64,000 nt of DNA from Eledone cirrhosa (lineage: Eukaryota): NCBI GenBank assembly GCA_964016885.1, contig OZ024741.1, positions 56,978,001-57,042,000 of the forward strand, written 5' to 3'. The translations under genes were made by a program, and so were the position numbers. Below, piece by piece: positions 16,556 through 17,686 of the stretch (positions within the stretch are counted from its first letter, which is position 1; every line of letters starts with the position of its first letter). The notes beneath the pieces are model-generated. The model was not told the DNA's origin. It was given only the letters and a program-made list of their open reading frames with translations, and made no database searches.

Positions 16556-16688
16556 ATATAAACACACACTCAAGTACAATATTGTAGCACAATAAAGCAA
16601 TGCAAATATCGGATAAGTAGCACTCAACAGTTTATTGGACTGGAGTATATATAAGAACAAATTAAAAGATGGTTAAAAAAGTTCCATG

Positions 16689-16759
16689 TATTTTATTATG
16701 CGCATTTCAAAAACAAATATCATCCAGGGACGATATTTGCGTTCTCATCCGATAAAATA
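16689..16759 (-). ncRNA. Type I hammerhead ribozyme fold (core variant CGGAUGA)
   Basis: Reverse complement of the motif at 16853-16923. Confidence 0.65.
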
Positions 16760-16852
16760 GGGAGACATGATATGAAGCTTAAAAAAGACACTTGTGATCA
16801 AGACACTACCTTGCTCACAAGTGTCTTTTTTAAGCTTCATATCATGTCTCCC

Positions 16853-16923
16853 TATTTTATCGGATGAGAACGCAAATATCGTCCCTGGATGATATTTGTT
16901 TTTGAAATGCGCATAATAAAATA
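16853..16923 (+). ncRNA. Type I hammerhead ribozyme fold (core variant CGGAUGA)
   Basis: TATTTTAT-CGGATGA-stem II-GAAA-TGCGCA-TA-ATAAAATA. Confidence 0.65.
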
Positions 16924-17098
16924 CATGGAACTTTTTAACCATCTTTTAATTTCTTCTTATATATATATGTGTGTGTAGGAGGTGAGTTTTATTGTAGTAC
17001 AATAAAGCAATGCAAATATCGGATAAGTAGCACTCTACAGTTTGTAGGACTGGAGTATAAATAATATAAGATCAAAAGATGGTTAAAAGAGTTCCAAG

Positions 17099-17169
17099 TA
17101 TTTTATTATGCACATTTCAAAAACAAATATCATCATGAGATGACATTTGCGTTTTCGTCAGATAAAATA
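17099..17169 (-). ncRNA. Type I hammerhead ribozyme (CUGACGA core intact)
   Basis: Minus strand TATTTTAT-CTGACGA-stem II-GAAA-TGTGCA-TA-ATAAAATA. Confidence 0.75.
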
Positions 17170-17303
17170 GGGATACATGATATAAAGGTTAAAAAACATT
17201 TGTGAATAGTGAAGTTTTAAATCAACATATCATGTTGATTATATATGTTGATTTAAAACTTCACTATTCACAAGTGTTTTTTAACTTTCATATCATGTAT
17301 CCC

Positions 17304-17374
17304 TATTTTATCTGACGAAAACGCAAATGTCATCTCATGATGATATTTGTTTTTGAAATGCACATAATAAAATA
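17304..17374 (+). ncRNA. Type I hammerhead ribozyme (CUGACGA core intact)
   Basis: TATTTTAT-CTGACGA-AAACGCAAATGTCATC-TCAT-GATGATATTTGTTTTT-GAAA-TGCACA-TA-ATAAAATA. Confidence 0.75.
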
Positions 17375-17409
17375 CTTGGACCTCTTTTAACCATCTTTTG
17401 ATCTTATAT

Positions 17410-17686
17410 TATATATATATATATATATATATATATATATATATATATATATATATATATATATATATATTTATTTATATATATATATATATATATATAT
17501 ATATATATATATATAGAGAGAGAGAGAGAGAGAGAGAGAGAGAGAGAGAGAGAGAGAGAGAGAGAGAGAGAGAGAGAGAGAGAGAGAGAAAGAGAAATAT
17601 ATATATACATATATATATATGTGTGTGTGTGTGTGTGTGTGTGTGTGTGTGTGTGTGTGTGTGTGTGTGTGTGTGTGTGTGTGTGT
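17410..17686. repeat. (TA)n-(GA)n-(GT)n compound microsatellite
   Basis: Directly visible. Confidence 0.97.

Follow-up and report, generated by a model that had tools for sequence, protein, structure and literature searches.

The closest described counterparts of the locus reported here are insertions of endonuclease-bearing (EN+) Penelope-like elements (PLEs), for which the standard picture comprises inverted, 5'-truncated pseudo-LTRs (pLTRs), a tail at one end, and microsatellite targets (PMC8557442; PMC3846280). In Schistosoma PLEs, dual hammerhead ribozymes are found 100-700 bp apart on opposite strands, and a circular template has been proposed (Cervera and de la Pena, 2014; PMC4209133). 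The type I hammerhead core follows the consensus C3U4G5A6NG8A9/G12A13A14, as given in PMC7151607. A purified PLE protein has been described that cuts and extends both strands and starts reverse transcription (RT) at two internal sites bounding the tail; the ribozyme was dispensable for insertion in vitro (PMC11167929). An extra G at the complete 5' ends of full-length L1 insertions is treated as a trace of the RNA cap (PMC11702581). The origin of inverted pLTRs with a one-sided tail and the role of the hammerhead are both stated to be open in PMC8557442 and PMC11167929. Our literature search, whose reach did not include key older papers, found no published twin-priming account for PLEs, and it found no functional study of the Hydra clade of these elements.

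This study concerns a locus in a stretch of Eledone cirrhosa DNA of 64,000 nucleotides (hereafter the window, to which all genomic positions refer). We consider it likely that the locus consists of two back-to-back stubs of the hammerhead-bearing pLTR of a high-copy PLE with Hydra-clade motifs, each probably left by one insertion in which the two cut strands of a (TA)n target were primed on a single RNA. Taken by itself the locus is ordinary, being two damaged stubs among thousands of family copies, and the literature already describes inverted pLTRs, a tail on one side, insertion at (TA)n, and hammerheads paired on opposite strands. The family as a whole, in turn, provides a natural record of an unsettled insertion mechanism, in which the copy ends place the proposed RNA start and priming sites, as well as the predicted circle junction, at exact nucleotides.

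Organization of the locus

Self-comparison of the window bore out the two fold-back units proposed in the first-pass annotation: the arms of unit 1 (16676-16802 and 16810-16936) are 99% complementary and those of unit 2 (17056-17230 and 17243-17417) 96%, with 86-88% likeness between the units. Each unit is asymmetric, carrying a tail on its left arm alone. In copy 1, the tail (16580-16645, minus strand) is a 3' extension past the pLTR that lacks its last ~15 nt; it aligns to tail positions 16-84 and continues the arm in parent copies. At 16568-16592, this shortened tail ends in a short snap-back palindrome. The adjoining tail-bearing pLTR arm (16646-16802, minus strand) belongs to subfamily 1, begins about 20 nt inward of the start site according to the arm alignment, and matches locus L071 at 96.9% over 223 nt including the tail; the tail-less pLTR arm (16810-16965, plus strand; 96.4% to L071) terminates in (TA)n. 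A (TA)n(TG)n tract (16956-16974), in which both copy 1 and the tail of copy 2 end, is likely the target of the second insertion.

Copy 2 starts at 16975 rather than at 16990, and its tail (16975-17055, minus strand) is complete, spanning element positions +175 to +256 with an end point identical in parent and stub copies. Its tail-bearing pLTR arm (17056-17230, minus strand; 96.9% to L092 over 257 nt), of subfamily 2, runs from +1 at 17230 and is preceded by a G absent from the parent (junction row L001, minus strand). The head-to-head junction (17231-17242) is a 12-nt filler repeating the first bases of the element, and the tail-less pLTR arm (17243-17417, plus strand; 95.4% to L092) extends from +1 to about +175, ending at a TA-rich internal site. 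The right flank and target is a (TA)n microsatellite (17408-17515). Copy 2 as a whole is thus parent +1 to +256 on the minus strand joined to +1 to +175 on the plus strand, at 95-97% identity. ORF identity between the two subfamilies is about 75-78%, and because units of different subfamilies meet at a short (TA)(TG) tract, the apparent tandem represents two insertions at one microsatellite; the spacing of 410-450 nt between same-sense ribozymes reflects two different subfamilies lying next to each other, not amplification of one unit in tandem.

Elsewhere in the window, 4765-9315 (minus), 11964-13369 (plus), and 35202-36426 (plus) contain long ORFs that by eye resemble non-LTR retrotransposon proteins, the one at 4765-7548 having 928 aa, and a pair of ORFs that look like a DNA transposase. 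ORF pieces of other Hydra-like PLE families occur at 42015-43328 (minus), with SDKTN, FDIVDFY, and YRDDG, and at 49228-49887 (minus), with an RT-thumb-like region.

Hammerhead layouts and predicted folding

A descriptor scan for type I hammerhead layouts was run over the whole 64-kb window, with 20 dinucleotide shuffles of the window as the control. It returned exactly the four layouts with 8-bp stem I that had been reported, two per strand, and none in any shuffle. Those of copy 1, at 16689-16759 (minus; core at 16751, H17 and predicted cut after 16697) and 16853-16923 (plus; core at 16861, H17 and predicted cut after 16915), have the core CGGAUGA. Those of copy 2, identified by scan and folding at 17099-17169 (minus; core at 17161, H17 and predicted cut after 17107) and 17304-17374 (plus; core at 17312, H17 and predicted cut after 17366), have the intact core CUGACGA, with stem III loops UGUGCA and UGCACA, respectively. 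The complete type I set (C3U4G5A6NG8A9, G12A13A14, the A15-U16 pair, H17, and three stems) is present in the family form and in copy 2, while copy 1 carries in both arms the U4-to-G change (U4G) noted earlier.

The U4G change would be expected to harm hammerhead cleavage. Its frequency among ribozyme matches genome-wide, 7 versus 1,675 with U4 (1,682 in total), rules it out as a functional subfamily. Our literature search found no paper testing U4G, the 'U4G' matches in PMC7151607 being the string U4G5. The self-complementary TGCGCA of stem III, described previously for every arm, holds for copy 1 but not for copy 2, where TGCACA (plus) and TGTGCA (minus) break the palindrome and weaken the predicted self-dimer helix from -10.5 to -3.7 and -6.0 kcal/mol. 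Every one of the four window ribozymes therefore departs from the family form, by a change either in the core or in the dimer palindrome. An Rfam search of the whole window (E<=1) gave no hammerhead among the 150 of 153 matches listed, which were microsatellite-driven and miRNA-like.

In the isolated RNA of 17296-17385, the 11-bp stem II core and 8-bp stem I proposed earlier were predicted to pair with P of 0.98 and 0.94, and pairing was indeed kept across the stem II differences between subfamilies, through one-sided changes. An RNA beginning at +1 was predicted to form stem II (P 0.98-1.0) and, partially, stem I (0.39-0.83). Given the outward orientation of the ribozymes, transcription of either strand passes through the complementary arm before it reaches each of them, and in every read-through RNA of the palindrome that we folded, stems I and II had a predicted P of 0.000, with a cost of 84 kcal/mol for forcing both.

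Among 13 variants from the same and neighboring families, compared without a formal covariation statistic, the core is kept, stem II varies in length and sequence but is foldable in 13/13, stem III is self-complementary or nearly so, and stem I is altered on both sides in two families. The retained core, foldable stem II, and near-palindromic stem III support the view that the ribozyme of the parents is a selected dimer-type hammerhead. Nine rows represent other type I hammerhead families (L014:441-505, L033:5538-5602, L040:3985-4045, L043:3562-3627, L046:2061-2127, L095:270-332, L028:715-780, L097:4012-4074, and L089:7462-7508); seven have nearly the same stem I with different stems II and III, most adjoin (TA)n, and L014, L040, and L095 lie in palindromes.

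The parent element and its family

A search of the 3.0-Gb genome with a 136-nt arm gave 1,288 candidates, and the 40 that were scored contained 50 matches at 94-100%; a 26-mer of the ribozyme had 21,797 exact matches genome-wide (controls, 0). The genome-wide search for a parent PLE suggested by the first-pass annotation succeeded, in that locus L031 contains, in order, an inverted arm, a 5'-truncated RT-EN ORF, a 3' UTR, an arm, a tail, and (TA)n. Long copies hold a single ORF encoding RT followed by a GIY-YIG endonuclease (motifs in translations P0001, P0003, and P0004). P0001 carries YRDDG, and its nearest Atlas clusters have RVT_1, HTH_animal, and GIY-YIG in 20-100% of members; Pfam and PDB sequence searches with P0001 gave no match. 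P0004 carries CxCX5C, YFGST..FKARF, CxxC, and CxH, and, judged by eye, lacks CCHH. These motifs recur across the ORFs of longer copies together with RLRW, SDKTN, FDIASYY, MGAS, and YRDDG; DKT (as SDKTN) is found in L086, L092, and L094, and RLRWI in L086 and L094.

Partial tandem pLTRs occur in L081, L086, L092, L111, and L126, and inverted copies throughout. The unit measures 3.7-4.0 kb (tandem spacing 3,709-4,022 in L081, L092, L111, and L126), with a 3' UTR of more than 1 kb; in tandem copies the tail continues into the 5' UTR, followed by an ATG about 335 nt after the arm start. The hammerhead sits in the pLTR, and (TA)n flanks the copies. Judged from these sequences, each window arm is the pLTR of an EN+ Penelope-like retrotransposon, so the link drawn at the outset to PLE pLTRs and inverted 5' repeats was right. 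The absence of an ORF holds for the locus but not for the family, since the arms are the end of an ORF-bearing element; nor do they form a separate non-coding or retrozyme-like family, as they are 94-97% identical to the pLTRs of ORF-bearing copies and their centers vary from copy to copy. The family bears motifs of the Hydra clade, in which we place it by motif comparison. An identity with Neptune/Nematis was dropped because the linker is CxCX5C and CCHH was not seen. P0001 also has an Asn/Ser-rich stretch between RT and linker (residues about 360-445; L039), resembling the Asn-rich inserts of Adineta Penelope (PMC3846280).

Ends of the copies

The 3' ends of copies fall at two points ~82 nt apart, the tail end at +255 and a TA-rich site at about +174. 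As a sample unbiased for 5' ends, we used 99 of the first 100 ribozyme 26-mer matches listed on C1, and 30 of these 99 arms end within 7 nt at the A of CATATG, which defines +1 (1.2 expected). Six head-to-head joints in contigs from public runs (one study) have their ends at this point as well. Perfect head-to-head junctions at this start number 747 genome-wide. A G absent from the parent stands at -1 in 20 of 43 junction arms (12/20 in the unbiased set) against a background of 10.7%; by our reading, the G of 7 of the 20 G junctions lies within the partner arm's own sequence, 2 more are ambiguous, and about 4/43 junction rows look like misclassified read-through copies. Genome-wide, G junctions number 2,602, with T at -1 nearly as common (2,059). 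We regard +1 as the likely start of a capped RNA; if so, given the 5'-end cluster and the extra G, palindromes like copy 2 would be short run-off products.

At the predicted cut there is no peak of 5' ends (0 at +125; 2 of 74 internal truncations in +120 to +129), and hence no direct footprint of cleavage is left here. Ribozyme-cut linear templates were considered, and their footprint was sought but not found; 6 of 30 full-length copies end at +99 to +124, mostly upstream of the cut, and these ends fit stalling or microhomology at stem II equally well.

Among the 30 copies holding the 5' UTR, 19 reach +1, of which 17 pass it and 2 stop, compared with 30/82 stopping in unbiased arms (P 0.03). 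One capped unit-length mRNA therefore cannot be the only template, and a longer one is needed, whether a ribozyme-made circle, a read-through RNA, or template jumps. The 5' and 3' pLTRs of tandems are closely related to each other, and the read-through of +1 is consistent with a circular template.

Two side observations concern the ends. A second 5'-end cluster lies at -18 to -32 in 7 of the 30 full-length copies (L161-L190). The tail end, read antisense to the element (window 16975-16987, plus), is AG/GTGAGT, with GTAAGT in L003 and L086; we take this to resemble the splice donor consensus, and it could affect host splicing or bear on the idea of an antisense template.

Head-to-head pairs

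The table of 46 head-to-head pairs was read by hand; tail-less arms below 28 nt escape detection. Exactly one tail was found in 41 of the 42 scorable pairs, none in 1, and two in 0 (4/46 were unscorable). The 5' ends of partners are coupled: 13 pairs are start/start and 14 long/long, and start/long occurs once (13.1 expected). We rejected a scheme in which each pLTR of a tandem RNA (the 5' and the 3' repeat) serves as one template, as it predicts start/long pairs. Between partner arms, the median number of changes in 150 nt is 1, versus 10 for other arms (26 pairs, of which L118 is probably no true pair), though 4/26 differ by 7-14 changes; the variant in both copy 1 arms is one seen in 7 of 1,682 matches. 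In 26 of 30 non-start pairs (18/21 where both hold the anchor) it is the tail-less arm that reaches further toward the 5' end, in some cases by kilobases, so simple copying of the tail arm cannot have produced it. An end at +1 with the extra G is seen even in tail-less arms whose partner is a tail only or is absent (L011, L125, L135, L153). Arm lengths grade continuously up to full ORF-bearing copies, centers and junctions vary between copies, and palindromes are present in each subfamily as well as in further hammerhead families.

The one-tail pairs, the scarcity of start/long pairs, the likeness of partners, and the longer tail-less arm are, as sequence patterns, consistent with twin priming on a single RNA; later conversion between the inverted arms may have produced or added to the partner likeness. 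We also observed, in each of L114 and L137, two palindromes with junctions that are mirror images of one another, as if inverted between copies; two tail-less arms in L157; and, beside family copies, a small palindromic repeat of another kind and higher GC content that recurs in their (TA)n tracts (flanks of L006, L023, L030, L031, L065, and L076).

Discussion

Our proposal is that a capped RNA begins at +1, and that the first target strand would prime on it at the TA-rich +174, aided by TA microhomology, while the other would prime at the tail end, +255, its cDNA trailing and displacing the first copy. Both cDNAs would extend toward the 5' end and be joined head to head through either filler or a brief stretch of microhomology (ATAT/CATG). 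With a short capped RNA, or the 5' repeat of one, as template, the outcome would be a palindrome resembling copy 2, about 430 bp long. The hammerhead would be cargo from the parent's pLTR, folding in RNA that starts at +1 and needing a second copy for a complete stem III, and is predicted to be unfolded in palindromic read-through. The window copies would go back to two separate events in which different subfamilies inserted into a single (TA)n tract.

The most serious competitor keeps the same parent but makes the second arm a DNA copy of the first, through one cDNA that folds back and primes itself (or through an antisense template), with later trimming at the center and homogenization. An antisense template has been proposed for Adineta Penelope. 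Such copying accounts for the variants shared by partners, including U4G in both copy 1 arms, for the coupling of start with start and long with long, and for the 747 perfect junctions at a self-complementary start, and self-priming has been proposed from head-to-head palindromic junctions (PMC3846280). It does not sit well with a tail-less arm that outreaches its partner in 26/30 non-start pairs while the tail stands only on the shorter arm, or with +1-ended, G-bearing tail-less arms whose partner is a tail only or absent, and we consider it unlikely. A non-autonomous palindromic element (MITE- or SINE-like), copied whole by the PLE enzyme, would explain why start-to-start palindromes are common (13/46 pairs) and why some junctions recur exactly (747 perfect), yet junctions otherwise differ between copies, arm lengths run without a break up to full ORF-bearing copies, both outer ends coincide with the two priming ends of the parent, and both subfamilies as well as other hammerhead families form palindromes; this explanation we hold to be improbable.

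The first-pass annotation had raised a viroid- or retrozyme-like unit, in which read-through RNA is cut at two same-sense ribozymes ~450 nt apart and circularizes with ribozymes in both polarities. Plus-strand cuts at 16915 and 17366 would indeed bound a highly paired 451-nt RNA (-242 kcal/mol), and animal retrozymes have been argued to derive from PLE pLTRs (bioRxiv 2026.07.22.740005). However, both stems are predicted to be abolished in all read-through RNAs folded (P 0.000) and all four window ribozymes are off the family form, with U4G in both copy 1 arms and broken stem III palindromes in copy 2, so an excised, circular, two-polarity unit is very improbable. The units also come from different subfamilies, whereas the retrozyme account in that preprint requires a tandem of one monomer. 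Hardest of all to credit is a fold-back artefact of sequencing or assembly. It would suit long near-perfect inverted repeats within a long-contig assembly, and no record among those listed bridged either center with 31 nt on each side; against it, the arms differ (at 3 and 7 positions) and are asymmetric, the same layout recurs at dozens of loci, and contigs of the public runs X1-X3 (one study, possibly the assembly's own sample) cover 29/29 bins of 16765-17275 at 99% likeness and contain the six head-to-head joints, whose ends fall at 17243-17247.

Twin priming on one RNA may be only part of the family's history. A two-template scheme, which we put forward tentatively and consider possible rather than probable, would have a capped linear RNA from +1, twin-primed at +174/+255 with strand displacement, give rise to the mini-palindromes, and a hammerhead-cut, ligated full-unit circle, copied for more than one turn, give rise to the partial tandems. 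If true, it would provide genome-scale support for the making of a circular retrotransposition template as the job of the PLE hammerhead, and would fix the RNA start, both priming sites, and the circle junction (+124/+125). Start-to-start palindromes amount to about 13 per 99 ribozyme matches, or roughly 2,900 genome-wide by extrapolation if the first 26 Mb of C1 are typical; wherever host transcripts run through them, that number would supply long hairpin RNA in considerable amounts.

Compared with the Hydra clade as described by Craig et al. (2021; PMC8557442), the family shares DKT in place of DKG, RW near the N terminus, a CxCX5C linker, CxxC and CxH around the E and N of the EN with no CCHH seen, a hammerhead in the pLTR, and (TA)n insertion. 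It differs in length, as members of the clade are typically under 3 kb (a general, not strict, trait) whereas the present unit has 3.7-4.0 kb and a 3' UTR above 1 kb, in having RWI (L086, L094) for RWK, in its Asn-rich stretch before the linker, and in the more than 21,000 ribozyme-bearing arms in one genome. With EN+ PLE insertions (PMC3846280; PMC8557442), it has in common head-to-head inverted pLTRs, a one-sided tail, palindromic junctions, and partial tandems; the tail described there is 30-40 bp and lies in the ORF, whereas the present one has about 82 nt and lies in the 5' UTR, and many copies here are palindromes made up of pLTR only, whose two arms stop at one site. The hammerheads resemble those of other PLEs (PMC4209133) in being type I, in lying in the pLTR, and in a palindromic stem III implying dimer action, but those are minimal, while the ribozyme predicted here has an 8-bp stem I, a 3+12-bp stem II, and a 6-nt palindromic loop.

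Poseidon of Anolis carolinensis (PAc; Frangieh et al., 2024; PMC11167929) likewise uses both strands and two internal RT starts that bound the tail, has AT-rich targets, and gives no sign of ends at the ribozyme cut; the family studied here departs from PAc in having a TA-rich inner site that matches its target, a distance of about 82 nt between the two sites, and an ORF that begins about 335 nt past +1 and so does not include the ribozyme. L1 twin priming (PMC11702581) is similar in that the second target end primes internally on the RNA to give an inverted segment and in the extra G at complete 5' ends. L1 arms, however, abut or overlap by at most 10 bp, whereas here one stretch is copied into both arms, so that either strand displacement or another, identical template would be required. 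The non-LTR retrozymes of animals (bioRxiv 10.64898/2026.07.22.740005) are, like the window stubs, non-coding, with a type I hammerhead and an origin in PLE pLTRs. They are head-to-tail tandems of one hammerhead monomer, whereas the arms here stand head to head in pairs with varying centers, and adjacent units belong to different subfamilies.
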